A stretch of DNA of 32,000 nt from Methylorubrum extorquens (GTDB lineage: Bacteria; Pseudomonadota; Alphaproteobacteria; Rhizobiales; Beijerinckiaceae), in contig LT962688.1 in assembly GCA_900234795.1 (NCBI GenBank), forward strand, positions 3,480,001-3,512,000, in the 5' to 3' direction. Shown in pieces: positions 8,829 to 28,350 of the stretch; position 1 is the stretch's first letter, and each line of letters starts with the position of its first letter. The notes beneath the pieces were generated by a model. The model saw only the letters and a list, made by a program, of their open reading frames with translations, ran no database searches and was not told the origin of the DNA. Both the position numbers and the translations under genes were made by a program.

Positions 8829-9212
8829 TCAGGCCGCTTCAGCGCGCACTTCGCGAACCACGATCGTGAGGTTCGCAAAGGGCTTCAGGATGCGCGCGCC
8901 GCGACCGCGGGCACGGGCGTGGAAGCGCTTGAGCACCAGCGCCTTGCCGACGAAGGCCTGGGAGACGACGAGATCGTCCACGTCGAGATCGTGGTTGTTC
9001 TCGGCGTTGGCGATCGCGCTCTCCAAGCACTTCTTCACATCGCGGGCGATGCGCTTGCGGGAGAATTCGAGATCGGCAAGGGCCGTATCGACCTTCTTGC
9101 CGCGGATCAACGCCGCCACGAGGTTGAGCTTCTGGGGCGACACGCGGAGCATCCGCGCGACGGCCTTCGCCTCGTTCTCGGGGAGCGCGCGGGGGGTGGC
9201 AGGCTTGCCCAT
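8829..9212 (-). CDS. rplV: 50S ribosomal protein L22
   Basis: Track ORF 8829..9344 is over-extended into rpsS. The ATG at 9212 gives [41 protein letters not shown]... (127 aa), starting 1 nt after the rpsS stop. Confidence 0.93.
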
Positions 9213-9213
9213 C

Positions 9214-9492
9214 TCAGCGCCTCTTTGCCTTCTTGTCGGCCGCGTGACCGGGGAAGGTGCGGGTCGGCGAGAACTCGCCGAACTTGTGACCGACCATCTC
9301 CTCGGTGACGTAGACCGGGATATGCTTGTGTCCGTTGTGCACACCGAAGGTGATGCCCACGAACTGCGGAAGGATCGTGGAGCGACGGCTCCAGATCTTG
9401 ACGACCTCGTTGCGGCTGCCGCCGCGGGCGGCGTCGGCCTTCTTGAGGAGGTAGCCGTCGACGAACGGCCCTTTCCAGAGGGAACGTGCCAT
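9214..9492 (-). CDS. rpsS: 30S ribosomal protein S19
   Basis: [20 protein letters not shown]...[29 protein letters not shown]... Confidence 0.95.
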
Positions 9493-12451: not shown

Positions 12452-13644
<1,193 letters not shown>

Positions 13645-16413: not shown

Positions 16414-16785
16414 TTACTTCGGACGCTTTGCACCGTACTTCGAACGGCGCTGCTTGCGGTTCTTGACGCCCTGCGTGTCGAGCACGCCGCGCAGGATGTG
16501 GTAGCGCACACCCGGAAGGTCCTTCACGCGGCCGCCGCGGATCATGACCACGGAGTGCTCCTGAAGGTTATGCCCCTCACCGGGGATGTAACCGATCACC
16601 TCGAAGCCGTTGGTCAGGCGCACCTTGGCGACCTTACGAAGCGCCGAGTTCGGCTTCTTCGGGGTCGTGGTGTAGACGCGCGTGCAGACGCCGCGCTTCT
16701 GCGGGCAGGCGTTGAGCGCCGGCACCTTGTTGCGCGCCTTCTGCGCCTTGCGCGGCTGGGCGATCAGTTGGTTGATCGTCGGCAT
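16414..16785 (-). CDS. rpsL: 30S ribosomal protein S12
   Basis: 123-aa product [52 protein letters not shown]... Confidence 0.96.
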
Positions 16786-17173: not shown

Positions 17174-20100
17174 TTATTCGGCGGCGCTGGGCAGGCGGAA
17201 CGCGTCGATTCCGCGCCGATCCGGGTTGATTTCAGCCAACGCCCGCTTGGCGGTTTCCAGCGGATGCTCGGCCTCGATTCGCACCGAGCCGAGATCCGGG
17301 CTTTTGTAGACGGTGACGACCGTATCCATCACTTCGGTCAGCGTCGTGCGCTTGTCCTCGGGCGCGGCGATGAGGAGTTGCAGGCCCCAGGCGCGGAAGA
17401 GATCGACCAGCGACTGGCTGTTGCGCACGTCGAGTTTCGAGAAGGCTTCATCGAGAAGGCAGAGGCCGAGGCCCGGTGTCTCGTCGCCGGGGCGGTCGCC
17501 GGGATAATAGGCCGAGGCCATGGAGGCTGCGATCGCGACGTAGAACGGCGCCTGCGCCTCGCCGCCCGAACCGCGTAGCGCCCGGCTCGACAGGGTGGTG
17601 CGGTTGCCCGCCCGGTCGCGCATGCCGATCTCGTAGACGAAGTAGTTGCGGTAATCGGCCAGCCGCGCCGCGTTCTCCTCGCCCTCGATCAGCGCCGTAA
17701 TCTCGGCAAGTGCGGCGGCGAGCGGGCTGTTATTCGGTCCGCCCTCAGCGCCATTGTCGGGGCTCGGCAGCACCGCCTGCGCCGCATCGGGCGAGCGCGC
17801 GACTTCCGTGGCGAGCGCGTGGACGGCGGCGTAGCGGCGGTCCACCTCCGCCTCGAAGGCGTAGGTTTGGCCGGTGAAGGTCTGCGACGCCAGCCGCTCG
17901 TTGAGGGCGTCGAGCCGGGCACGCATCCGCTCGAACTTGTCGGCGAGCCGGGTCAGCAGATCCTCGGTCATGAGGCGGCGCATCTCGGCCTCCGCCCGGA
18001 GCGACTGGTCGCGGTAGCGGCGCAGTTCGTGCCCCGCCACCTCGTCGCGCTCGCGGGTCGCCCAGGCATAGCCGAACGAGGCCGGCTGCTCGCCCGAACC
18101 GAGCGGGTTCTCGACGCGCCACGCGGCGCAATACTCGGCAAGATCCCGCTCGGCGGCTCGACCCTGGTTGCGCACGCTGTCGGCGGCCTCGCGGGCGGAA
18201 GCGCGGGCCTGCGAGGCCAGCGACGCCAGCGCCTTGGTATCGAGCGCGGCGCGGTCCGCCCGTGCCGCGGCGATCCCGGCCACCGTGTCCGGCACGTCGG
18301 CGGGAACGGTGCCGGTGAGACGGATGCGGACGGTGTCGCCGGAGGTCCAGCGCTTGAGCGCCGTGCGGTAGGCTAGGAACGCGGTGCGTGCCGCCTCCCT
18401 CCCCTGCGCGACACGGGCCTTCAGCCCCGCCTCCTCGGCGAGCGCGGCGTCGCGCTTGGGCTCCAGCACCTGAACGAGTTCGGTGAGATAGGCGGAGCGC
18501 TCCTTCTGAAGCTCCTTCAGCTCCGCCTCGATCACGCCGGCATCGGCGCGGGCGACGGTCTCCTGCTCGGTGGAAAGGCTGCGGCGGCGGCCCTCGATGG
18601 CGTCGGCCTCGGCGCGCAGGGCTTCGAGATCGATCGGTGCTTCCGCCAGCCGGCTCCGCAGCAGCGCGGCGATGCGGGCGGCCTCGCGCATCACCGTGGC
18701 CTCGGCCCGCAGGGTCCGCGCCTCCTCGCGCGCCTCCTCGAGACGGCGGCGGGTCTCGGCGGTGGGCCCGCGCTGGCCGCGGGTCATCATCAGCGGCACG
18801 GGGCGCACGACCGAATAGGCCATGCCCGAAGTCGAGCGCCCGCTCGGCGCCACGGCGCGGCTCATGTTCCGGAGCGCGGCATCATCGGGCGCGAGATCGT
18901 AGCCGCCGAGCCGCGCGGCGAGGAAGGCCTCGGCGTGGTCGCTGTCGGTCTCGATCAGGCCCATCGGCCCGTCATCGAAGCGCCGCGCGGCGCGCCGCGC
19001 CGTATCGGTGGTCTTCACCAGGAGACAGCGGAAGAACTGATTCTTTCGGGACTCGAGCAGGGCGAAGGCGCGGTCCAGCCGGTCGGGCTCGACCACTAGC
19101 GCCTCGCGGGCGCGGCCGAGCAGGCCTTCGAGCGCCGGGCCCCATTTCGGATCGACGATCTCGGCGAGTTCGCAGATCGGCGCCGCCTCAATGCCGAGCC
19201 GGCCCAACTCCTCGCGGAACGCCTCCGTGTCGGAGGACAGGCGTGCAGCGGAGGAACGGCCGGCATTCACCTGCCCATCGAGGCCGCGAACCTCGTTCTC
19301 GCGCTCGCGGGCCTTGAGGGCGAGGTCTTCCGCTTCCTCTTCCAGGATGCCGGACACGTCCGGCATCTGCGCCAGCCCTTCGAGCAGACCTTTCAGCGGC
19401 CCATCGACCCGGAGAATGTCCTCCGGCGGCGCCTCGCGGCGGAGGCCTGAGCGGGCGCAGGCCTCGACGATGCGCGCCGCCTGAAGATCGATCCGGCGCA
19501 AGGGACCGGCAATGGCGCTGAGGCGGCCGGCATCCTGCACGAGGCCGACGATCCCGGCGAGGCGGTTGGTCAGGTCGCGCCGGTCGCGGGCGACCACGGC
19601 GAGACCGGCATGGGAGGCCGCAAGCCGCGCCTCCGCCACGCTGCCGACGATCAACGCCTTTCGGGCGGCGATCTCGGTGTCGATCTCGCGCACGAAGCCC
19701 TGGCTCGTCGCCACGCTTTCGCGGGCGATGCGCAGGCGCTCCGACGTCTCGGCGAGCAGGCGGCGGGCCTCCGCATGGTCGAGAATGCGGCGGCGCAGAT
19801 CCGCACCGGCGGCGCGCATCTCGTCGAGGGCGGCGGTAAGGCTTGCCCGGGCCCAGCCCTCGTAGCGCGCGCAGATGCGTGAGAGGTGGGCGAGGCGCTT
19901 CTCCAGTTCCTCGATGGTCTCCAGCAGGCGCCGCCACGTCTCGATCGACTGGCGGATGCGGGCGACATCGAGCGGCTCGGCCTCCAGCACGAAGCTGCGC
20001 ACGAAGGCGCTGGTGTCGAAGATCGGCTTGAACGCCACCGCATTGGAGAAGGTGCGCAGGAACTGGCGCGGATCGGGCACGGCCGCCCCCTCGCGCAGGG

Positions 20101-20653
20101 TCGCCAGCACGGCGGCGGTGAAGCGCTCGCCGGAGGTGCGGAACTCCTCGAACGTATCGGCCCGGCGGCGGAGGTCGGCGGCGATCTCGGCCCAGGGCGC
20201 GACGAAGCTGCCCTCGCTCGTCTCGCGCACGTAATCGGCGATCTCGAAACGGTGGCCGACGGCGATGAAGCGCGAAAGCGTCTCTTCCTTCGGCTCCTCG
20301 GAGCGGGCGGCGAGCGCCAGCCCGACCGTGACGATGCGGCCGCTCGAAGGGTTCTCGAACACGAGCGCAATAAGGGTTTCGCAGGCCTCGCGCGTCGGGC
20401 GCCCGCCCTCGGCCGGGTCGCTGATCCAGCCGAGGCAGTAGTCGCGCACTGTGCGTGCGCTGCGGCCCGAGGCGGAGGCGTTGAGCGCGAGCCGGCTCGC
20501 ATTGTTGCCGGCCAGCACCGTGCCGACCGCGTCGAAGATCGTCGACTTGCCCGCCCCCGTGGGACCGACAAGCGCCGCCGCGCCCCGAATCCGGATCTGC
20601 TCGCGCCGGATGAGGTACCAATTCGAGATCGCAATATCGGTGAGGCGGTACAC
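17174..20653 (-). CDS. jetC: SMC-like ATPase, JetC/MksB-like (Wadjet/MksBEF family candidate)
   Basis: 1159-aa ORF with a GTG start, which is fixed by an in-frame TAA four codons upstream. The N-terminus MYRLTDIAISNWYLIR...LVGPTGAGKSTIFDAV carries Walker A. About 900 aa of Ala/Arg/Glu-rich coiled coil contain a central hinge-like block (VDPKWGPALEGLLGRAREALVVEP). The C-terminus has the ABC signature (GSGGEAQ) and Walker B (LCLLDEAF). Confidence 0.65.
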   Translation of the reverse strand: MYRLTDIAISNWYLIRREQIRIRGAAALVGPTGAGKSTIFDAVGTVLAGNNASRLALNASASGRSARTVRDYCLGWISDPAEGGRPTREACETLIALVFENPSSGRIVTVGLALAARSEEPKEETLSRFIAVGHRFEIADYVRETSEGSFVAPWAEIAADLRRRADTFEEFRTSGERFTAAVLATLREGAAVPDPRQFLRTFSNAVAFKPIFDTSAFVRSFVLEAEPLDVARIRQSIETWRRLLETIEELEKRLAHLSRICARYEGWARASLTAALDEMRAAGADLRRRILDHAEARRLLAETSERLRIARESVATSQGFVREIDTEIAARKALIVGSVAEARLAASHAGLAVVARDRRDLTNRLAGIVGLVQDAGRLSAIAGPLRRIDLQAARIVEACARSGLRREAPPEDILRVDGPLKGLLEGLAQMPDVSGILEEEAEDLALKARERENEVRGLDGQVNAGRSSAARLSSDTEAFREELGRLGIEAAPICELAEIVDPKWGPALEGLLGRAREALVVEPDRLDRAFALLESRKNQFFRCLLVKTTDTARRAARRFDDGPMGLIETDSDHAEAFLAARLGGYDLAPDDAALRNMSRAVAPSGRSTSGMAYSVVRPVPLMMTRGQRGPTAETRRRLEEAREEARTLRAEATVMREAARIAALLRSRLAEAPIDLEALRAEADAIEGRRRSLSTEQETVARADAGVIEAELKELQKERSAYLTELVQVLEPKRDAALAEEAGLKARVAQGREAARTAFLAYRTALKRWTSGDTVRIRLTGTVPADVPDTVAGIAAARADRAALDTKALASLASQARASAREAADSVRNQGRAAERDLAEYCAAWRVENPLGSGEQPASFGYAWATRERDEVAGHELRRYRDQSLRAEAEMRRLMTEDLLTRLADKFERMRARLDALNERLASQTFTGQTYAFEAEVDRRYAAVHALATEVARSPDAAQAVLPSPDNGAEGGPNNSPLAAALAEITALIEGEENAARLADYRNYFVYEIGMRDRAGNRTTLSSRALRGSGGEAQAPFYVAIAASMASAYYPGDRPGDETPGLGLCLLDEAFSKLDVRNSQSLVDLFRAWGLQLLIAAPEDKRTTLTEVMDTVVTVYKSPDLGSVRIEAEHPLETAKRALAEINPDRRGIDAFRLPSAAE

Positions 20654-21086
20654 CAGCCCGGCCGCTTATCCCGAGGTTGAACGAGAGACAGCGCAATGGA
20701 CGCTACGCCTCGCACACGCAAGGGCGGGATCGCGGCGGGCCGCGGACGCCGCCCGATCGGCACAATCTGAGGATGCCCAACCGTCGATGCACGACCGCTC
20801 CGAGCGGCCGACGGCTTCGATACAGCAATCACCGACCCGTGATTTGACGGGGCCGCGTCGATCCGAGACCAGAGCCACTCGGCTGAGCGTCGGGCCCCGA
20901 CGCACGAAACAACTATCGCAGATCTCTTGCAACGGCAGGTTCATAAAACCTGTTCGATTACTGCCTTTCAAAGCCCCCTGCGTACTCTGACACATGCGAG
21001 AAACACTGATTTTGACGCAACCCCAATACGATCCGTGCCATACGGTGAATTGCGCTCTCCGACCGTCCAGAACTCCGATCGCTGAA

Positions 21087-21194
21087 ATGTCCGCCCGCCG
21101 TCCACGCCTGACTTACGGTGTTCTGTTTATTGTCGCCTCGATTGTTCTATGGGGCACGGCATCATGGGTTGCAGGCAGTATCATCTGGGTCTGA
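21087..21194 (+). CDS. Hypothetical 35-aa single-pass membrane peptide (speculative)
   Basis: MSARRPRLTYGVLFIVASIVLWGTASWVAGSIIWV has a basic N-terminus followed by one hydrophobic helix. It lies in a visibly lower-GC islet and is the ATG-initiated part of track ORF 20994..21194. Confidence 0.25.
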   Translation: MSARRPRLTYGVLFIVASIVLWGTASWVAGSIIWV

Positions 21195-21201
21195 GACCGG
21201 C

Positions 21202-21429
21202 TTAGACGTCTTTCCTGCAAGCGATGTAGCCTCCCACAACATAGCCACCCTGCAACGCGCAGAGGGAGGCGGCGATCATCAACAGGTCGGCCAGCACCAA
21301 CTGGCCACTGTAAAAGTGATAAATGATCCGCGCGATGATGACAAAGAAACTCGCGACGGCAAGCATCCCCCAGTGATAAAACATGCCGATCAGTATACCG
21401 GCAATAACGAGAAGCGGGATCGCTAGCAC
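21202..21429 (-). CDS. Hypothetical 75-aa polytopic membrane protein (about 3 predicted hydrophobic helices)
   Basis: GTG start. Almost the whole sequence is hydrophobic (LAIPLLVIAGILIGMFY / GMLAVASFFVIIARIIYHFY / LVLADLLMIAASLCALQGGYVVGGYIA). Its AT-rich codons (att, tat, ttt, agt) are unlike the rest of the window. It converges on the 35-aa ORF with a 7-nt gap. Confidence 0.35.
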   Translation of the reverse strand: MLAIPLLVIAGILIGMFYHWGMLAVASFFVIIARIIYHFYSGQLVLADLLMIAASLCALQGGYVVGGYIACRKDV

Positions 21430-21693
21430 GGGATCATGACCCTATCCTGCCGGATCGGCATCTGAGAGCCTTTTTGACGAAATCTTTCCTTAGGTTACCG
21501 CCGCGGCCGATCGCGCGCAAAGGGTCACTTGGCTTAAAACTAGGCGAATTCTGCAGGTTCCCCCTTTATCGAACGGCATCGTTAACGGACCGGTCACCCT
21601 AAGGTTGGGCGTCCGGCCGGGAAGGCATCAGCTTGGTGCCGCTGCGTATCGATCCGCATATCCGCGTATCCGGCGGTCGTCGGAAGGGCATAG

Positions 21694-21952
21694 GCTGTCC
21701 GCCGGCGCCGCACGTTTGTCCGCGATTGCGCCGAAGACGAGCCTATCGCCCGCCGCCGCGGCATCGGCGACACCCTGGTCGAGGCCAGCATCGGCTTCGC
21801 CCGCGAGACGAACTTATGCCCGCCACGGCTTCGCCTGCGACGAGACAGCGACCCATATCGGCTTCGGTAGGCCGGTCGAGGGTGAAACCTGGATGCTGCC
21901 CTTAGGCGAGACGGGGCAGGCACTGGGGCAAGCACCGGAGCAGGCCACGTGA
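21694..21952 (+). pseudogene. GNAT-family acetyltransferase remnant (truncated, frame-shifted, internally deleted)
   Basis: One + frame reads ...DEPIARRRGIGDTLVEASIGFARETN, which resembles GNAT motif A (R-x-x-G-x-G). From about 21810 the adjacent frame reads YARHGFACDETATHIGFGRPVEGETWMLPL, a typical GNAT C-terminal (Y-x-x-x-GF) segment. The 25-30 residues expected between the two are missing, and there is no intact N-terminal half. Confidence 0.3.
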
Positions 21953-22033
21953 CGGGGGCGATGCCCCCGCCACATCGGTTATGTCACGCCGAGCCCCCGA
22001 TCCCCGCTCCGGACAGACCCTCTCGCGGGAAGC

Positions 22034-22665
22034 TTAGCCGCCAAAATTCTTGGCGAGCCACGCCCCGGAGGCGGCCAGATCGGCCTGGGACAGGCCGTGC
22101 CCGGCCGGATTGACCGTGTGGGTCACCGCCGCGCCCGCCTGCTCGAGGCGCGCGGCGAGCCGTTCGGCATTCTCGGCCGGCACGATTGGGTCGAGAGCGC
22201 CCGAGAGAGCAGCAGCACCGGGCGGCCGGCGAGGTCGGCCGGCGGGCTTTCGGCGAGCGGCACCATCGCCCGCAGCAGAACCGCCCCGGCCAACACCTCC
22301 GGGTGCAGGAGCAGGGTCGCCGCGGCGATGTTGGCCCCGTTCGAGAAACCAACCGCCACCGGCGCGGCGAGCCCGTAGGCCGCGCGCGCCTGCGCGACGA
22401 AGGCGGCAAGGTCGCCGGCGCGGCGGCGGACATCCGCCTCGTCGAACACGCCTTCCGCGAGACGGCGGAAGAAGCGTGGCATGCCGTTCTCCAGAACCGG
22501 CCCGCGGGGCGAGAGCAGCGCGGAGCCGAGCGAGAGCGCGCGACCGAGGGAGAGCAGGTCGCTCTCGTCACCGCCCGTGCCGTGCAGCAGCAGGAGCGGC
22601 GGCGCGCGGTCGTCGGTGCCGGGCTCGAAGCGGTGGATGAAGTCGAAGGTGACGCCGTTCGTCAT
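22034..22665 (-). pseudogene. Phospholipase/carboxylesterase-family alpha/beta hydrolase (MhqD-like), with one frame break as sequenced
   Basis: ORF 22123..22665 gives MTNGVTFDF...LLLLHGTGGDESDL...VGFSNGAN (nucleophile elbow) up to ...PVLLLS. The conserved C-terminus GALDPIVPAENAERLAARLEQAGAAVTHTVNPAGHGLSQADLAASGAWLAKNFGG* continues in another frame down to the TAA at 22034-22036. The span is 632 nt, so 1 nt is missing, probably at the C3 run at 22200-22202. Confidence 0.75.
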
Positions 22666-22741
22666 GGCTGTCTCCGTTCCGTCTGAGGAGGGTGCGACCG
22701 CCCGGACAGGATCCGGGCGGCCGCGAAGGTGGGCGGTCGGT

Positions 22742-23671
22742 TCAGGCGACCTTCGGCAGCACCGCCTCGATCCGCCCGCGATGCGGCTCGAGGAAGGGCG
22801 GCAGCTTCAGCGCGGTCCCGAGTTCCGCCACCGACTCGTCGATGGCAAAGCCCGGCGCGTCGGTCGCGATCTCGAACAGCACGCCGCCCGGTTCGCGGAA
22901 GTAGACCGAGCGGAAGTACTGCCGGTCGCGCTGCTCGGTCACGGACAGGCCGTGCCGATCGCTCAGCCGCTCCGTCATCGCCGCCTGCGCCGCGTCGTCG
23001 GCGGCACGGAAGGCGATGTGGTGGACCGAGCCCGCCCCCTGCCGGCCGGGCAGGAAATCGCCGACCGCCCGAAGCGTCACGAACCCGCCGAGGCCCGCCC
23101 CGCTCGTCAGCCGGATCTGGCTGCCCTCGCGGGCGGCCTCCGTAAAGCCGAGCACGTCCGTGAGGATCGCAGCGGTCGCCTCCGCCCCGCGCAGGAGCAG
23201 GGTGACGCCGTGGAAGCCGCGAATCGCGGTTTCCGGCGCGATGCCCTCGGACGTCCAGGCCGGCTCGGCCTCCGCCCCCTCGACGCCGACGAGCGCCAGC
23301 GGCATCCCGTCGGGATCGCGGAAGCGCAGCACCGTCTCGCCGAAGACCGTTACCGGCGCCTCGTGCGAGACGTTCAGCGACACGAAGCGGTGCGTCCAGG
23401 CGCCAATCGCGGCGCGCGGCACGCGGAAAGCGGTCTCCGACACCTGCCCGATGCCGACGCGGCCGGGGGCCGCCTGGGCGATCGGGAAGAAGGTGAGGAT
23501 CGTGCCGGGCGCGCCCGCCTCGTCGCCGAAATAAAGGTGGTAGGTGCCGGGATCGTCGAAGTTGACGGTCTTCTTCACCAGCCGCAGGCCGAGTACGCGG
23601 GTGTGGAAGTCGATGGTGCGGGCCGTATCGCTCGCAAACGCCGTGACGTGGTGGATGCCGTGCGCGCTCAT
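22742..23671 (-). CDS. Two-domain VOC-family ring-cleaving dioxygenase (glyoxalase/extradiol dioxygenase fold, MhqO/YfiE-like)
   Basis: Track ORF 22742..24346 is over-extended. The ATG at 23671 is preceded by AGGAGA. The product is MSAHGIHHVTAFASD...FFPIAQ...GFHGVTLLL...GSVHHIAFRAADD...YFRSVYFREPGGVLFEIATD (309 aa), with the VOC modules in tandem. Confidence 0.8.
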   Translation of the reverse strand: MSAHGIHHVTAFASDTARTIDFHTRVLGLRLVKKTVNFDDPGTYHLYFGDEAGAPGTILTFFPIAQAAPGRVGIGQVSETAFRVPRAAIGAWTHRFVSLNVSHEAPVTVFGETVLRFRDPDGMPLALVGVEGAEAEPAWTSEGIAPETAIRGFHGVTLLLRGAEATAAILTDVLGFTEAAREGSQIRLTSGAGLGGFVTLRAVGDFLPGRQGAGSVHHIAFRAADDAAQAAMTERLSDRHGLSVTEQRDRQYFRSVYFREPGGVLFEIATDAPGFAIDESVAELGTALKLPPFLEPHRGRIEAVLPKVA

Positions 23672-23768
23672 GGTGCGGGTCTCCTGTTCGAGAGGATCGC
23701 CGCGGGATCCGTGTCCGGGCTGCGATCGGTGTGAGCGCGATCTGGCCCTTGCCTGCTCGCCTGAAAAT

Positions 23769-23794
23769 GGAAACGATTGAAACGCATCGTTTCC
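23769..23794. promoter_or_regulatory. Candidate LysR-type operator in the divergent dioxygenase/lysR intergenic region
   Basis: Perfect 9-bp inverted repeat GGAAACGAT-N8-ATCGTTTCC, 12 nt upstream of the lysR ATG and about 100 nt upstream of the dioxygenase start. Confidence 0.45.
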
Positions 23795-23805
23795 GGATTT
23801 TAGCC

Positions 23806-24747
23806 ATGGCAAAACTTCCCGATTTCGAGGCCTGGGCCGTGTTCGCGGTGGTGGCCGACGCCCTCTCCTTCGCCCGGGCGGCCGACGAACTCGGGCTGTC
23901 GAAGGCGACCGTCTCGAAGGCGGTCGCGCGCTTGGAGGGACGCCTCGGCGCGCGTCTGTTCCACCGCACCTCCCGCCGCCTCGCGCTGACCGAAGCCGGC
24001 CGTCTGGCGCGTGAGGACGCGGCGGGGCTGCTGGCCGCGGGCGAGGCGGCGGAGGCCCGCGCGCTCGACGCCAACGGCGTTCCGCGGGGGCGGGTGCGGC
24101 TCGCAGCCCCCATGTCGTTCGGGGTCGCCCATGTTGCGCCGGTGCTGCCAGAATTCCTGGCCGCGCACGCGCAAGTCTCGGTCGATCTGCACCTGTCCGA
24201 CGCGCTGGTCGATCTCGTCGGCGGCGGGTTCGATCTCGGCCTGCGGATCGCCGCTTTGCCCGATTCTTCGCTCCGGGTGCGGCGGCTCTGCGGGGTGCGC
24301 CGCTCGCTCGTGGCGACGCCCGCTTATCTGGCGCGCTACGGGCCACCGCAGCATCCGGAGGATCTGAAGGCGCGCGCCTGCCTCGGCTACGCCTACCTGC
24401 CGACGCCGGACCGCTGGCCCTTCACCAACGCGGCCGGCGAAACCGTCACGATCGTGCCCGAAGGCCCGCTGCGGGCCAACAATGCCGACGCCCTGGTGCC
24501 GGCCCTGCGCGCCGGGCTCGGCCTCGCGGTGCAACCGGATTTCACGATCTGGGAGGATCTGAAGTCGGGCCGCCTGGAGCGGGTGATGCCGGACTGGCAG
24601 CCGCCGCCGATCGCCCTCAACCTCGTGATGCCGCCCGGTCTGCCGCGCCCGGCGCGGGTCTCGGCGCTGATCGCCTTCCTGGAACGGGCCTTCTCCACCG
24701 CGCCCTGGGCGCAGGAGGAGGCTTCGCCTCAGATCGATGTGCGTTGA
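23806..24747 (+). CDS. LysR-family transcriptional regulator
   Basis: The ATG at 23806 gives MAKLPDFEAWAVFAVVADALSFARAADELGLSKATVSKAVARLEGRLGARLFHRTSRRLALTEAG..., a classic LysR N-terminal HTH followed by a substrate-binding domain. It is divergent from the dioxygenase-esterase pair. Confidence 0.88.
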   Translation: MAKLPDFEAWAVFAVVADALSFARAADELGLSKATVSKAVARLEGRLGARLFHRTSRRLALTEAGRLAREDAAGLLAAGEAAEARALDANGVPRGRVRLAAPMSFGVAHVAPVLPEFLAAHAQVSVDLHLSDALVDLVGGGFDLGLRIAALPDSSLRVRRLCGVRRSLVATPAYLARYGPPQHPEDLKARACLGYAYLPTPDRWPFTNAAGETVTIVPEGPLRANNADALVPALRAGLGLAVQPDFTIWEDLKSGRLERVMPDWQPPPIALNLVMPPGLPRPARVSALIAFLERAFSTAPWAQEEASPQIDVR

Positions 24748-24792
24748 CCCCGCCCGTCGGTCGGGATCAACGCGCTCGGCGGACGACCGCCG

Positions 24793-24841
24793 CCACGCAT
24801 TCGCGTGGGCGAATGGCGATGAGACGGGCTCATCGCCATTC
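24793..24841. terminator. Tandem hairpins between the convergent lysR and jetB-like genes (possible bidirectional terminator or insulator)
   Basis: CCACGC-attc-GCGTGG lies at 24793-24808. A perfect 13-bp stem, GAATGGCGATGAG-acggg-CTCATCGCCATTC, lies at 24811-24841 and ends 4 nt from the jetB-like stop. Neither strand has a U tract. Confidence 0.4.
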
Positions 24842-24845
24842 GGTC

Positions 24846-25481
24846 TCAGACGCCCCTTCCCTTCCCGGCGGAGGCCCAGGCGCGGACCTGATCCATCCAG
24901 GCATCCGGCGAGAGCACGGTGATGCCCGGCATCACCATCAGCGGGGTGACCCGCTCGGCCCGGTCGCGCTCGCCCAGCCGCAGGGCGCCCTTGCGGGCGA
25001 ACAGGCGCAGGATCTCGATCAGGCGCGCCTCGTCCGGGGGCTCGGTGCGGGCAGCAGAGCGGATCGCGTCGGCGATGTCGTCAGTGGTGCATTCCACCGT
25101 GCCGTCGGTGGAGACCCGGTGATCGCGCAGGCCCTCCTCGTAGGCGAGCCGGAGTGCCAGCAGCACCAGTGTCTCGTCCTTGCGCAGGCGCTCGCCCTGC
25201 GCATCGTGGCGCACGCCGTCCGGCGGCAGGGCGAGAAACACCATCTGATCGCGGTGGGCGACCTCGAAGCGGTAGCCGAGGCAGGCGAAGTAGTCGCGGA
25301 AGAACGGCGCGTAGTGCCGGGCGAGTTCGTAGGAACGGCCGATGCCGGTGGTCGCGGCGTAGATGCACTGGCTCTTCAGCATCACCTGAAGCGCACGGGT
25401 CAGCTCCTCCTCGCTCGGCGCGGCGCTGCCGGGCGGGGGCATCTCCTCGCCGTCGAGGATCGCGCGGAAGGGTTCGAGCAT
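24846..25481 (-). CDS. jetB: JetB/MksE-like (KITE subunit, DUF4194-like) candidate
   Basis: 211-aa acidic, helical protein. It sits directly downstream of the JetA-like gene, has a weak Shine-Dalgarno, and has an in-frame TGA 12 nt upstream of its ATG, a coupling arrangement. The size and position fit JetB. The family assignment is from memory and has not been searched. Confidence 0.5.
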   Translation of the reverse strand: MLEPFRAILDGEEMPPPGSAAPSEEELTRALQVMLKSQCIYAATTGIGRSYELARHYAPFFRDYFACLGYRFEVAHRDQMVFLALPPDGVRHDAQGERLRKDETLVLLALRLAYEEGLRDHRVSTDGTVECTTDDIADAIRSAARTEPPDEARLIEILRLFARKGALRLGERDRAERVTPLMVMPGITVLSPDAWMDQVRAWASAGKGRGV

Positions 25482-25493
25482 CGGGTTGTCCGT

Positions 25494-26908
25494 TCAGCCT
25501 GCTTTGCCGGCTCCGCGCCGGGCAGCGGGGGGGCGGTATGCGCTCGATCATGAAGTCCGGACAGTCGAGCCAGCCGTTGGAGACGCGGCCCTCGATCCGG
25601 GCGACGCGGTAGCGGCTGCGCAGGACGCCGTCGAACAGCACGTCGATCTCGCGCAGGCGCTGGAAGACGACGAAGGCATCGACGTCATCGACCTGGATGT
25701 CCGAGCCGCGCAGGGCCTTCACCTGAGCGAGCCGGGCGTCGAGATAGGCGACGATGCGCTCCGGCGTCACGGTGATGCGGCGGCGGAATTCGTCCTTGGC
25801 GGCGATGAACGCCTCGATCGCCGGATCGATGTCGATCTCCGGCAGCGGCTCGTACTCGATGATCCGGCGCGGCATGCGCGGATTCGTGAGCTGCGGCGGG
25901 CCGATCGGCGGGCGCAACAGCGAGATCTGCGGCAAGGGCAGGCCGGCGAGGTCGTCCTCGCCCGCGCCGACCGCGCGGAGCGCCGCCGCCGCCCGCTCGA
26001 TCCGGGCCGAGTCGCGCGGGTCGCGGTAGCGGAGCGCGGCCGAGATGCGCCGCTCCAGCCGGGCGACCACCTCGGCCACCGCATCGAGATGCGGGTCGAG
26101 GCCCTCGAAGATCGAGAGGATTTCAACGAGATCGGTGCGCACCATCCGCTCGGCTGCCGTGATGTCGGCGGCGCGGCCCCTCGCGCAGGTTGCCGTCGGC
26201 CAGCGCCCTGAGCGTCAGCGGATCGCGCAGGGCGCGCCCGGCCTCACGCACGATGCCGGAGCGGAAGCGGAACGGGTTGAAGCGGGTGTGCAGCGTCCGG
26301 TAGTCGGAGACGAGGTGACGCTCGACGAACTCCTCGAAATAGAGCCGGAAGGCCGCGCTGAGATCGGGCTCGCGCAGGATGCGCTCTTCGAGCTTGCGCA
26401 TGGCACCGGCCAGGCCGCGCAGGTGGCCGAGGAAGGTGCGCGAGGCTTTCGCCGCGTTGCGCAGCGCCTCAGAGCGGTCGGCGGGGCTGGCGATGGCGCT
26501 CTCCAGCGCGCTCAGGACTTCGAGCACCGCGCCGCCGTAGGAGCGGGTCTCGCCGCGCTCGATCCGGGCCAGTTCCTCGATCAGCAGCCGCGCGTCGGGG
26601 TCGAAATCGACCACCGGCACGTAGCGCTCGCGCCGCTCCACCAGCCAGCCCGCCTCGATCAGCCGCCGGAACACCGCCGAGCGCCGCTCGATCGGATCGA
26701 CCGGCGTCGCCTCGTCGTCGGCAATCTCGGCCTGGCTCCAGCCGGCGGAGAAATCGCCGATGGCGGCCAGCAACTCGCTCTTGCGCAGCGGCTCGGCGGC
26801 ATCGCCGAACACGCGGGCATGCAGGTGCAGCAGCAGGGCCGCGTTGAAGGCGCGGCTCGGCGAGGCGAGCGGTCGGAAGAGGTCGTCGGCGAGATGAGTA
26901 AACAGCAT
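25494..26908 (-). pseudogene. JetA/MksF-like (kleisin-like) candidate, with two frame breaks as sequenced
   Basis: The ATG at 26908 opens MLFTHLADDLFRPLASPSRAFNAALLLHLHARVF... in the frame of ORF 26123..27004. The reading continues in the frame of ORF 25081..26145 (...AADITAAERMVRTDLVEILSIFEGLDPHLD...). Skipping one base near the C4 run at 26177-26180 joins the two. Skipping one base in the G7 run at 25527-25533 makes the protein end ...MIERIPPPAARRGAGKAG* at the TGA at 25494-25496, 12 nt before the jetB-like ATG. The total is then about 470 aa. Confidence 0.45.
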
Positions 26909-27045
26909 GACGGGACGGGCGCGACCACAACCCGCTCGGGCGCCGCGGGTCAATGCTCGCGCCGCTCTATCCCCCCTTGATCCCTGATTGATCCCTTCTT
27001 GCATCGACCGCGGCGTGCATCCGTTGTCTCGACAGACGCCGCCCG

Positions 27046-27735
27046 ATGGAGCCCAAAGAAATGCGCATCGAAACTGTCTTCCTGTTCGATCTCGACGGCA
27101 CGCTGGTCGACAGCGTCTACCAGCACGTGCTCGCCTGGAAGGAGGCGCTCGACGCGGAAGGGATTCCGCTCTCGGTCTGGCGCATCCACCGCAAGATCGG
27201 GCTGAGCGGGGGCCTGTTCACCAACCAGCTCCTGCGCGAGACCGGGCTCGCCATCGATCCGGATCGGATCGACCGGCTGCGGCGGTTGCACGCGGAGGCC
27301 TATGGCCGGCTGTCGAAGGGCGTGGTGCCGCTGCCGGGCGCCAGGGAACTGCTCGCCACGCTGACCGAGAACCGCATCCCCTGGGCCATCGCCACCAGCG
27401 GGCGGATGGAGACCGCCGGCCACAACCTCGTGGCGCTCGGCGTCGATCCCGAACAGGTGCCGGTGGTGACGCGGGACCTCGTGAAATACGCCAAGCCCGA
27501 TCCGGATCTGTTCCTCGCCGCCGCCGCGCGGCTGAACGCGCCCATCGAGCACGCGGTGATCGTCGGCGATTCGATCTGGGACATGCTGGCGGCCCGGCGC
27601 TGCCGCGGGCTCGGGGTCGGCCTGCTCTCGGGTGGATACGGCACCGAAGAGCTGGAACGCTCCGGCGCGGTCAGGGTCTACGACGACCCCGCGATGCTTC
27701 TGGAACACCTCGACGAAGTCGGAGGCCGACGCTGA
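27046..27735 (+). CDS. HAD-superfamily hydrolase, subfamily IA (phosphatase)
   Basis: 229-aa product with motif I FLFDLDGTLVDS, motif II IATSG, motif III K..KPDPD and motif IV VGDSIWDM. Confidence 0.85.
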   Translation: MEPKEMRIETVFLFDLDGTLVDSVYQHVLAWKEALDAEGIPLSVWRIHRKIGLSGGLFTNQLLRETGLAIDPDRIDRLRRLHAEAYGRLSKGVVPLPGARELLATLTENRIPWAIATSGRMETAGHNLVALGVDPEQVPVVTRDLVKYAKPDPDLFLAAAARLNAPIEHAVIVGDSIWDMLAARRCRGLGVGLLSGGYGTEELERSGAVRVYDDPAMLLEHLDEVGGRR

Positions 27736-27960
27736 GCGCTGAGCGCGCACTATGGCCAAGGCTAAGCCGAAGATCCGCTGCGCTCGGCCCCGGTCAAGGG
27801 CCCACAATGTGACCCTGACGATTGGATGAACGGCCCCTTGCACCTTCGTTCATGCGACAGGACGTAGCGTGAGCTTCGGGACATCGGGAGTGAACCGAAT
27901 CCAGGCCGTACCCGTTGGGGTGCCAATGGATCGATGATCCACCCTTTTCGGAGAGACGTC

Positions 27961-28350
27961 ATGAAGAAGCTTGCGATTCTGTCCGCCGTGGCCGTCCTCG
28001 GCGTCGGCGCCCTGTCCTCCACCGATGCCGAGGCCCGCTGGCGCGGTCGTGGCGGCGGCGGTGGCGCGATCGCGGCCGGCGTCATCGGCGGACTCGCGGC
28101 CGGCGCGCTCGTCGGTGCGGCCGCCTCGAATGCCTACGGCTACGGCGGCTATGGTGATGGCTACGGTTACGGCGGTGGCTACGGCTATGCCCGCCCGGTC
28201 GCCGGTTACGGGTATGGCTATGCCCGTCCCGCCTACGGCTACGGCTACCGCAACGTCGGCTATTACGATGGCGGCTACTACGCGCCGCGTCGTGCCTACG
28301 GTGGCTATTCCTGGGGCGGCCCGGCCTACGATTACGGCTACGGCTGGTAA
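27961..28350 (+). CDS. Secreted glycine/tyrosine-repeat protein
   Basis: The ATG at 27961 is preceded by GGAGAG. The signal peptide is MKKLAILSAVAVLGVGALSSTDAEA. A Gly/Ala-rich hydrophobic stretch follows, then GYGY-type repeats (GYGGYGDGYGYGGGYGYARPVAGYGYGYARPAYGYGYRNVGYYDGGYY...YDYGYGW). Confidence 0.7.
   Translation: MKKLAILSAVAVLGVGALSSTDAEARWRGRGGGGGAIAAGVIGGLAAGALVGAAASNAYGYGGYGDGYGYGGGYGYARPVAGYGYGYARPAYGYGYRNVGYYDGGYYAPRRAYGGYSWGGPAYDYGYGW

Follow-up and report, generated by a model that had tools for sequence, protein, structure and literature searches.

MksBEF and MukBEF have been proposed in reviews to descend from Wadjet-like immunity systems via loss of the nuclease, an idea for which the main grounds are sequence divergence and structure. 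In enterobacteria, MukBEF takes the place of Smc-ScpAB. The smc gene commonly lies apart from scpAB. In mycobacteria, for example, smc and scpAB are unlinked (PMC11329512). Type I Wadjet (JetABCD, also called MksBEFG or EptABCD), represented by the systems of E. coli GF4-3 and P. aeruginosa PA14, restricts DNA circles smaller than about 100 kb (bioRxiv 10.1101/2022.10.04.510915), whereas MksBEF without MksG (P. aeruginosa MksBEF and M. smegmatis MksB) is a three-subunit, Muk-like SMC with no nuclease. The window analyzed here, 32,000 nucleotides of Methylorubrum extorquens DNA, encodes all three core Wadjet-type SMC subunits without the DNA-cutting subunit: jetA, jetB, and jetC lie on the minus strand in the same order as in type I Wadjet, and jetB and jetC are 4,192 bp apart, with other genes filling the gap. 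By subunit make-up, the locus is like MksBEF. The kind of system is already known, and what is new is a variant of the Wadjet/MksBEF family; the first-pass annotation, which had called such a locus unusual, overstated the case, as MksG-less three-gene MksBEF systems have been described (bioRxiv 10.1101/2022.10.04.510915; PMC10586767). We assign a probability of roughly 0.6 to the reading that the locus encodes a functional, nuclease-free SMC complex, type I Wadjet-derived and MksBEF-like, from two transcription units.

A split, nuclease-less, Wadjet/MksBEF-like JetA-JetB and JetC module had been proposed from three same-strand genes with the sizes and order of jetA, jetB, and jetC, and the proposal held up in profile and fold searches and in comparisons between genomes. 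All three genes were located on the minus strand, at 25494..26908 (jetA), 24846..25481 (jetB), and 17174..20653 (jetC), and were matched by PADLOC JetA1, JetB1, and JetC1 and by Pfam JetA, DUF4194, AAA_29, and SbcC_Walker_B; no NCBIfam model matched JetA, JetB, or JetC. The SMC-like, MukB-like ATPase gene jetC is intact and encodes 1159 aa, which JetC1 (PDLC00506) matches over positions 1-1149 of 1149 (1969 bits), and the Walker A (GPTGAGKST), signature (GSGGE), and Walker B (LLDEAF) motifs noted in the first-pass annotation are intact and conserved. In a likeness to type I Wadjet, the sole PDB sequence matches of JetC (phmmer, E <= 1e-3) were JetC chains (8as8, 9qxt, and 8dk1); unlike in MukBEF, which also differs in taxon, there was no match to MukB in the PDB, and the match to Pfam SMC_N (32 residues, 25.5 bits) was below the cut-off of 40, which sets JetC apart from the protein family of Smc-ScpAB. 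The MukE-like KITE subunit gene jetB (211 aa) starts 12 nt past the jetA stop codon and is matched by JetB1 (PDLC00475) over positions 1-208 of 210 (391 bits) and by DUF4194 (67 bits); JetB returned nothing meaningful against PDB sequences. Unlike type I Wadjet, the JetB of Methylobacterium has no acidic C-terminal tail, a feature of the other aligned JetBs. The MukF-like kleisin JetA was identified by JetA1 (PDLC00466) and Pfam JetA (PF18982), and because its profile gave only a spurious match, to FCHO2, among PDB sequences, its fold was searched instead. The best PDB fold matches of the AlphaFold model of a 99%-identical JetA (P0224) were MukF chains (9gm7_C, 9gm7_D, and 3rpu_X) and JetA chains (8q72_E and 8as8_E), a kleisin fold shared with MukBEF, as is the SMC/kleisin/KITE architecture, and with type I Wadjet.

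Unlike type I Wadjet, the M. extorquens locus has no adjacent JetD Toprim nuclease (DUF3322 plus JetD_C). The position after jetC where jetD is expected is taken by rpsL (16414..16785, minus strand; Pfam Ribosom_S12_S23), the first gene of an rpsL-rpsG-fusA-tuf cluster in which S7, EF-G, and EF-Tu follow (Pfam); the annotated lack of a Toprim/DUF3322-DUF2220 (JetD) ORF after jetC therefore stands. Where rpsL comes after jetC, in 13 loci, 388-402 bp separate the two genes. In tblastn searches of the window and 80 loci (1.53 Mb), three JetD queries matched only their own three source loci, and Pfam and PADLOC scans of flanking ORFs at the Methylobacterium loci and those of JetD-less relatives found no JetD. 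The same approach applied to PLSDB was sensitive enough to detect JetDs as distant as those of Vibrio and Cohnella, and found none in the 2.83-Mb M. bullatum replicon that carries jetABC. Among the 120 JetD-profile matches listed, most of them nameless, other Hyphomicrobiales (Bradyrhizobium, Devosia, and Rhodopseudomonas) are present, and Methylobacterium, Methylorubrum, Microvirga, and Aureimonas are not among the names. Candidates for JetD elsewhere were rejected: a 403-aa ORF 3' of jetC at one locus (L021) is a trypsin-PDZ protease, and in R. leguminosarum jetC is followed by ORFs of FeeM-like and AbiEi-like proteins.

Eight relatives with JetC identities of 37-43% carry jetABC without jetD; these span at least five further named genera, including Microvirga, Antarcticirhabdus, Aureimonas, Agrobacterium (A. 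rubi), and Rhizobium (R. leguminosarum), and three metagenome contigs. In all five sampled outgroups, the nearest of which are canonical jetABCD operons, jetD overlaps or abuts jetC, and all JetD-less JetCs form one Hyphomicrobiales clade in a rough neighbor-joining tree. These comparisons indicate that loss of jetD is clade-wide in a Hyphomicrobiales lineage and, unlike in MksBEF, the loss can be placed in a tree beside JetD-bearing sisters. Several of the JetD-less relatives lie in megaplasmid or mobile-element-like regions, surrounded by thymidine kinase, AbiEii, DUF4262, GmrSD, and ART-PolyVal genes and many small ORFs, and such settings fit a role in conflict between elements as well as a housekeeping role. 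The Methylobacterium genes, unlike type I Wadjet, are chromosomal, widespread in the genus, and adjoin core genes such as the rpsL operon rather than lying in a defence island.

In Methylobacterium and Methylorubrum, jetB and jetC are 0.1 kb, 2 kb, or 4.2 kb apart or on different contigs, as in M. haplocladii, in which jetAB and jetC are both intact; at one locus (L051), jetA and jetB were not detected. The M. extorquens genes are not in the single operon of type I Wadjet, and the SMC gene lies apart from the kleisin and KITE genes, unlike in the published MksBEF examples, described as operons in the papers cited above, but as in Smc-ScpAB. The LysR/dioxygenase/esterase cassette, GNAT remnant, and low-GC islet annotated between jetB and jetC are all present. 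A LysR-family regulator gene on the opposite strand (23731..24747, plus strand; Pfam HTH_1 and LysR_substrate) divides the jetAB unit from the jetC unit, and is accompanied by a ring-cleaving dioxygenase gene of the glyoxalase/VOC family (22742..23680, minus strand; Pfam Glyoxalase), whose plasmid homologues carry the annotation "ring-cleaving dioxygenase", and by an alpha/beta-hydrolase (esterase) gene (22036..22665, minus strand; Pfam Abhydrolase families). The esterase gene is broken by a 2-bp CT insertion near 22205-22210 when compared to two related loci, L054 and L001, and the L001 homologue is intact (224 aa). Of a MarR-GNAT acetyltransferase gene, a remnant of the 3' part lies at 21690..21935 (plus strand), with window translations including ARRRGIGDTLVEASIGFARE and YARHGFACDETATHIGFGRPVEGETW that match the C-terminus of an intact 337-aa MarR-GNAT ORF in L001 (7893-8906). 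A membrane protein ORF of ~75 aa (21193..21420, minus strand) lies inside the low-GC stretch (about 20700-21600; GC 0.59-0.60), and L001 has a homologous 75-aa ORF on the jetC strand (9225-9452). Upstream sequence was available for 10 Methylorubrum-group loci, of which 9 share the split between jetB and jetC, and the intervening DNA is not a recent insertion private to this genome. Neither direct nor inverted terminal repeats were found at the ends of the 4.2 kb; a transposon origin is therefore unsupported.

Strong hairpins had been annotated at the end of jetB, and folding places a hairpin cluster with no U tract between the convergent jetB and LysR genes (24745..24845, minus strand). The 106 nt past the jetB stop codon fold with -61.5 kcal/mol (z = -4.5; 0 of 200 shuffles fold as well), and a 14-nt inverted repeat at 24810-24842 forms a perfect 14-bp stem; the region differs in L054. 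This cluster is probably a transcription barrier or terminator. In the bullatum group, the ~500-bp spacer between jetA and jetB contains no inverted repeats in the two loci L007 and L009. A scan of 20400-27300 with the sigma-70 consensus returned no promoter, and the terminators that it called lay away from gene ends; promoter-like elements were therefore called by cross-species conservation. The jetC gene has its own GTG start, with a TAA four codons upstream at 20666-20668, as annotated, and a promoter-like element, CTTGCG-N17-CCATT (20695..20722, minus strand), lies 42-69 nt 5' of the GTG. The form CTTGC(G/A)-N17-CCA is conserved in 12 of 12 Methylorubrum loci and most other Methylobacterium loci, with or without an adjacent jetB, and sequence farther upstream diverges; the element is a candidate for a dedicated jetC promoter. 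A second element, TTGACC-N17-TTGTGG (26925..26953, minus strand), ends 17 nt before the ATG of jetA and may act as its promoter; the form TTGAC(C/T)-N17-(T/C)TGT is kept, between diverging flanks, in most Methylorubrum loci and in those of the bullatum group, and is missing from L054. Two of the explanations offered in the first-pass annotation, a nuclease-free MksBEF-type complex and a complex with parts expressed from separate transcription units, are compatible with each other, and both gained support, the latter from the conserved jetC element with its putative promoter function, the LysR gene, and the hairpins.

We infer that JetA and JetB would be produced from one transcription unit and JetC from its own promoter 4.2 kb away, that the three would assemble into the usual dimer-of-dimers motor, and that the motor would load on DNA and extrude loops, driven by the JetC ATPase. 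With jetD lost in the Hyphomicrobiales lineage, the locus would be organized like MksBEF; because a complex with no Toprim subunit would not cut DNA, its output would be DNA compaction, organization of the chromosome or a large replicon, or a non-cleaving effect on plasmids, rather than restriction by cleavage. A role in chromosome organization or segregation is suggested by precedent (PMC10586767; PMC11329512) and by the chromosomal, vertically inherited, and selected state of the genes. In M. extorquens AM1, JetA and JetB are intact (ACS39935.1 and ACS39936.1), and the strain carries circular plasmids of 44,195 and 24,943 bp, and the coexistence of such plasmids with intact JetA and JetB is consistent with a lack of cleavage activity.

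The window itself offers some support for the decay suggested in the first-pass annotation, here taken as a dying Wadjet that has lost jetD, has since acquired frameshifts in jetA, and has had its jetC severed by an insertion: jetD is missing, 4.2 kb of other genes lie between jetB and jetC, and jetA is not one ORF but is interrupted by two frame breaks, so that PDLC00466 matches two pieces (positions 2-247 and 257-460 of 465; 430 and 286 bits). If the frameshifts are real, the strain would have no kleisin, and this would count against a functional complex. However, each break is the insertion of one base into a short homopolymer run, a G in a G4 run at 26177-26180 and a C in a C7 run at 25527-25533, and both insertions are missing from L054 and L001, as the first site is G3 in relatives and the second is C6 in L054 and no long run in L001. 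Deletion of one G and one C yields a JetA of 470 aa, which aligns to the intact L054 protein with 99.1% identity and no gaps. L054 comes from a relative whose DNA is about 92% identical, and Pfam JetA covers positions 14-433 of 434 in its JetA. Moreover, the 354-aa JetA fragment clusters with no other sequence, whereas the cluster to which the intact 470-aa protein of AM1, DM4, and other strains belongs has 128 sequences, those of JetB included. The breaks occur in this window only, tuf and the esterase gene of the same record are disrupted by similar insertions, and JetA is intact in other strains; the breaks therefore probably reflect errors of assembly and not decay. The G4 and C7 runs were also considered as sites of programmed frameshifting or phase variation, an idea that was rejected since the runs differ in relatives and the tuf and esterase insertions are alike. 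Furthermore, the three jet genes have omega values of 0.04-0.17 in Methylorubrum (0.09 for jetB, from 9 Methylorubrum sequences, and 0.11 for jetC; values for LysR, and in part for the dioxygenase, were extraction artifacts and are left out), and jetC has an omega of 0.07-0.15 and no internal stops across adjacent, 2-kb-gap, and unlinked arrangements, which indicates that jetC is intact and under purifying selection in every spacing class. With the split also common to nearly all of the Methylorubrum-group loci, decay is very improbable, and comparison with relatives indicates that the nuclease-free, split arrangement is conserved and under selection instead of marking a defence locus in decay.

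JetABC could instead be the sensor of a plasmid-restriction system with its nuclease, JetD or an analogue, at an unlinked locus, just as jetC is unlinked from jetAB. Genes do become unlinked in this lineage, as in M. haplocladii, and a short N-terminal JetB helix is conserved across the JetD-less clade, which counts against the nuclease-free reading, as the corresponding helix of E. coli JetB is predicted to bind the aCAP domain of JetD (bioRxiv 10.1101/2023.11.03.565488). We nevertheless consider an unlinked nuclease quite unlikely, given that no JetD was found in the 1.53 Mb around jetABC (about 80 genomes) or in the M. bullatum replicon, that the four genera named above are missing from the named entries of the 120 JetD-profile matches listed, that all eight relatives share the loss while every outgroup has jetD at jetC, and that AM1 holds circular plasmids of 25 and 44 kb. 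An unlikely, though somewhat stronger, candidate is a factor for defence or competition that targets plasmids or other mobile DNA and leaves them uncut; small circles might be fully extruded and then compacted, silenced, or mis-segregated. Smc5/6 is proposed to act on viral episomes by a comparable non-cutting inactivation. Descent from the plasmid-sensing type I Wadjet, the megaplasmid or mobile-like settings of several JetD-less relatives beside AbiEii, GmrSD, and ART-PolyVal genes, and the discussion of non-cleaving inactivation as a possibility in bioRxiv 10.1101/2022.10.04.510915 all favor such a factor. However, this activity is not known for any JetABC and small plasmids are stably kept in AM1, and because the Methylobacterium genes are chromosomal, genus-wide, and beside core genes, a housekeeping role fits better.

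The nuclease-free, MksBEF-like complex can tentatively be taken further, with somewhat less than even confidence: Methylobacterium and Methylorubrum may carry a domesticated Wadjet that lost its nuclease in a Hyphomicrobiales ancestor, settled permanently in the chromosome, and now acts as a second, DNA-organizing SMC with a housekeeping function while its subunit genes drifted apart. If so, it would be a traceable natural case of the proposed transition from JetABCD to MksBEF/MukBEF in a genetically tractable organism, and one in which the subunit genes drifted to complete unlinkage, like smc and scpAB. The step of nuclease loss is visible with its neighbors, namely JetD-bearing sisters and a JetD-less clade with some members on mobile elements. 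In a single genus, purifying selection acts on jet genes that have become fixed chromosomal residents, and the SMC gene has moved step by step out of linkage with the other two. Genetic manipulation of M. extorquens is easy, so that it suits the study of a JetABC motor without its nuclease. Defence-system finders that require all four genes would miss the JetD-less family, and finders that score single genes would call it "Wadjet" despite a probable lack of plasmid restriction.

The three genes that the first-pass annotation had described as a split, nuclease-less Wadjet/MksBEF-like module were matched at their places on the minus strand by PADLOC and Pfam. The jetC gene (17174-20653, minus strand) encodes an SMC-like ATPase of 1159 aa from a GTG start, with a TAA four codons upstream. 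JetC matched the PADLOC profile JetC1 (PDLC00506) with 1969 bits over the full length of the model, and the Pfam domains AAA_29 and SbcC_Walker_B were both found in it. Its ATPase motifs (Walker A, GPTGAGKST; signature, GSGGE; Walker B, LLDEAF) are intact and are kept in relatives, and among PDB sequences only JetC chains are related to it. The KITE gene jetB (24846-25481, minus strand) encodes 211 aa and matched PADLOC JetB1 (391 bits) as well as Pfam DUF4194. The kleisin gene jetA (25494-26908, minus strand) is broken over three reading frames in the window, and two jetA pieces matched positions 2-247 and 257-460 of the 465-position profile JetA1 (PDLC00466). The structural comparison employed an AlphaFold model of P0224, an intact JetA 99% identical to that of the window (mean pLDDT 74.8); its top seven PDB fold matches were MukF and JetA chains, with TM-scores that were low because JetA has several flexibly linked domains.

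The frame breaks in jetA were assessed by comparing the window with the two closest loci, L001 and L054. Relative to both, jetA carries one insertion that lengthens G3 to G4 (26177-26180) and another that lengthens C6 to C7 (25527-25533), and the esterase gene is broken by an additional CT near 22205-22210. Furthermore, tuf (12452-13644), which is intact in L001, contains two single-base insertions, around 13155-13175, that divide it into pieces of 176 and 220 aa. Insertions of 1-2 bp at short repeats in jetA, tuf and the esterase gene look like homopolymer-type assembly error. Deletion of the two jetA bases yields a 470-aa protein that aligns without gaps to L054 JetA at 99.1% identity; given this, and the insertions of the same type elsewhere in the window, errors of assembly are the most likely source of the frame breaks, which could otherwise only be very recent, and they do not point to decay. 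The broken genes carry fragment or unknown-protein annotation in the public M. extorquens record, and JetC, JetB, the 354-aa JetA fragment and the "EF-Tu (fragment)" of the window exactly match SOR30356.1, SOR30365.1, SOR30366.1 and SOR27545.1, respectively. The 354-aa fragment forms a singleton cluster; the intact 470-aa JetA that AM1, DM4 and further strains encode belongs to a cluster of 128 members, a number in which JetB sequences are also counted. Many Methylorubrum draft contigs (L002, L004, L006, L043, L054 and L056) stop about 3.7 kb after jetC, just past fusA, at the start of tuf; the probable reason is a second tuf copy in the genome, at which short-read assemblies break.

Downstream of jetC, about 390 bp are followed by rpsL, rpsG, fusA and tuf, and the genes in the remainder of the window are ribosomal, metabolic or for RNA polymerase. 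Searches with three JetD queries by tblastn across the window and 80 loci (1.53 Mb) matched only the three canonical loci from which the queries were taken, and Pfam and PADLOC scans revealed no JetD in the flanking ORFs. The earlier observation is confirmed, and its core reading, a JetA-JetB pair separated from JetC and lacking JetD, is supported. In PLSDB, where the JetD query recovers JetDs as remote as those of Vibrio and Cohnella, none was found on the 2.83-Mb replicon of M. bullatum or on the plasmids of R. leguminosarum and Salipiger, all of them jetABC-bearing. The named matches listed by a JetD profile search came from Bradyrhizobium, Devosia, Rhodopseudomonas and others, with no Methylobacterium or Methylorubrum among them; as most of the matches are unnamed, this absence is weak evidence.

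JetC homologues fall into three identity bands: 64-99%, consisting of Methylobacterium and Methylorubrum only; 37-43%, from other Hyphomicrobiales; and 28-34%, from more distant relatives. In the middle band, jetA, jetB and jetC are tightly arranged and jetD is missing in all eight members sampled (Microvirga massiliensis, Antarcticirhabdus aurantiaca, Aureimonas phyllosphaerae, Agrobacterium rubi, R. leguminosarum pRlX5 and three metagenome contigs). In the lowest band, jetD overlaps or abuts the jetC stop in each of the five members checked (the outgroup homologues P0095, P0096 and P0097, Novosphingobium terrae and Erythrobacter aureus). In a rough neighbour-joining tree the JetD-less sequences form one clade whose nearest neighbours are P0096/P0097 and P0095, and the simplest reading of this topology would be that jetD was lost once, in the ancestor of the clade. 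The N-terminal helix of JetB (MLEPFRAILDGEE; 25440-25481) is conserved in the JetB alignment with or without JetD, including within the JetD-less clade; in E. coli JetB this helix is predicted to contact the aCAP domain of JetD (bioRxiv 10.1101/2023.11.03.565488). The helix may be kept for a different function, or a partner may be encoded at an unlinked site. The acidic C-terminal tail is lost in Methylobacterium JetBs and is present in all other JetBs aligned.

The arrangement of the window is common to nine of the ten Methylorubrum-group loci with upstream sequence, in the order HAD, jetA, jetB, LysR (opposite strand), dioxygenase, esterase, a variable stretch, jetC and rpsL. In the tenth (Methylorubrum subtropicum, L051 1-5700), jetC is intact and the LysR-dioxygenase-esterase cassette is present; the 10 kb upstream of jetC, where jetA and jetB lie in the other Methylorubrum loci, showed neither gene. 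Elsewhere in Methylobacterium, the distance between jetB and jetC is 0.1-0.2 kb in some groups; in others it is 2 kb, and an inserted chemotaxis-receptor gene occupies the opposite strand. No jetAB lies within 10 kb of jetC in the M. haplocladii group, and in M. haplocladii itself jetA-jetB are on BJZT01000043.1 and jetC is on BJZT01000035.1. Its jetA shares the left flank of the window's jetA (MFS, LysR, tautomerase, HpcH, HAD), and this shared gene order suggests that jetAB stayed put and that jetC was the mover. In Methylobacterium sp. J-090 a homologous cassette lies directly downstream of jetC (L012 13583-16421) rather than before it; compared with its position in the window (22036-24747), this points to local rearrangement rather than simple insertion. 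As to the jetA-jetB spacer, it is 12 nt in the window and a non-coding stretch of about 500 bp in the M. bullatum group (L007 8683-9193, with equivalents in L009, L010 and L023), and that of L012 holds a 40-nt inverted repeat (9094-9187).

Decay of a defence locus, one of the alternatives raised in the first-pass annotation, is rejected by the dN/dS values, as well as by the likely origin of the frame breaks. Within Methylorubrum, omega was 0.04 and 0.17 for the N- and C-terminal parts of jetA, 0.09 for jetB and 0.11 for jetC. By spacing class, jetC omega was 0.15 for adjacent genes, 0.10 for the 2-kb spacing and 0.07 for unlinked genes, with zero internal stops. JetC and the neighbouring fusA showed correlated divergence (Spearman 0.46), which is compatible with vertical inheritance. 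Altogether, the jetB-jetC split is old, graded and tolerated.

The 4,192 bp between jetB and jetC encode a LysR regulator, a ring-cleaving dioxygenase and an alpha/beta hydrolase, and the dioxygenase-hydrolase pair is also found on Skermanella and Paroceanicella plasmids. The gap also contains a 3' remnant of a MarR-GNAT gene, with an intact counterpart in M. thiocyanatum, and, in a low-GC stretch, a membrane-protein ORF of about 75 aa that M. thiocyanatum shares; no repeats were found in the gap flanks. Downstream of jetB a strongly folding hairpin cluster is followed by the convergent LysR gene. A CTTGC(G/A)-N17-CCA element, a putative jetC promoter on the basis of cross-locus conservation (20695-20722), is situated 40-70 nt before the jetC start in 12 of 12 Methylorubrum loci and most other Methylobacterium loci, and a separate conserved element, TTGAC(C/T)-N17-(T/C)TGT, precedes jetA, at 26925-26953 in the window. 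A sigma-70 scan found no promoter, and both elements are conserved motifs unmapped as promoters. The jetC element is kept whether or not jetB adjoins, while the sequence further upstream diverges; it is therefore probable that jetC was already served by a promoter of its own when the genes separated, and this would explain why the separation was tolerated.

By homology with the described Wadjet architecture (bioRxiv 10.1101/2022.10.04.510915 and 10.1101/2023.11.03.565488), JetA would dimerise and bridge two JetC dimers, JetB would bind the middle of JetA, and the JetC ATPase would power DNA loading and loop extrusion. Without JetD the complex would contain no nuclease, and its likeliest output would be DNA organisation or compaction. 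M. extorquens AM1, in which JetA and JetB are intact, keeps circular plasmids of 24.9 and 44.2 kb, a size class (below about 100 kb) that type I Wadjet restricts (bioRxiv 10.1101/2022.10.04.510915); these plasmids are consistent with an absence of cleavage. Because JetD and a single operon, two features of complete Wadjet, were not found, the locus is not to be filed as such. The description that fits best is an MksBEF-like complex derived from type I Wadjet, free of a nuclease and encoded by unlinked subunit genes. As such it is a natural and tractable example of how, as has been proposed, an immunity system could turn into a housekeeping SMC complex.

Several JetD-less relatives occupy mobile-element-like regions in which jetC is immediately followed by a FeeM-like gene, and a role of JetABC in conflicts between mobile elements is therefore possible. 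In the mobile-element- or plasmid-like relatives this gene, a GNAT-type N-acyl amino acid synthase, is encoded on the jetC strand, about 200 bp beyond jetC (L074 9659-10468; L078 9681-10397; L081 8672-9397; L082 8663-9454), and may be a conserved partner or cargo; AbiEii and DUF4262 genes often come after it. Elsewhere in the window, a 138-aa ORF (27934-28350, plus strand) with no Pfam match opens with a signal-peptide-like stretch and has a repetitive body rich in Gly and Tyr, with GYGYG motifs.
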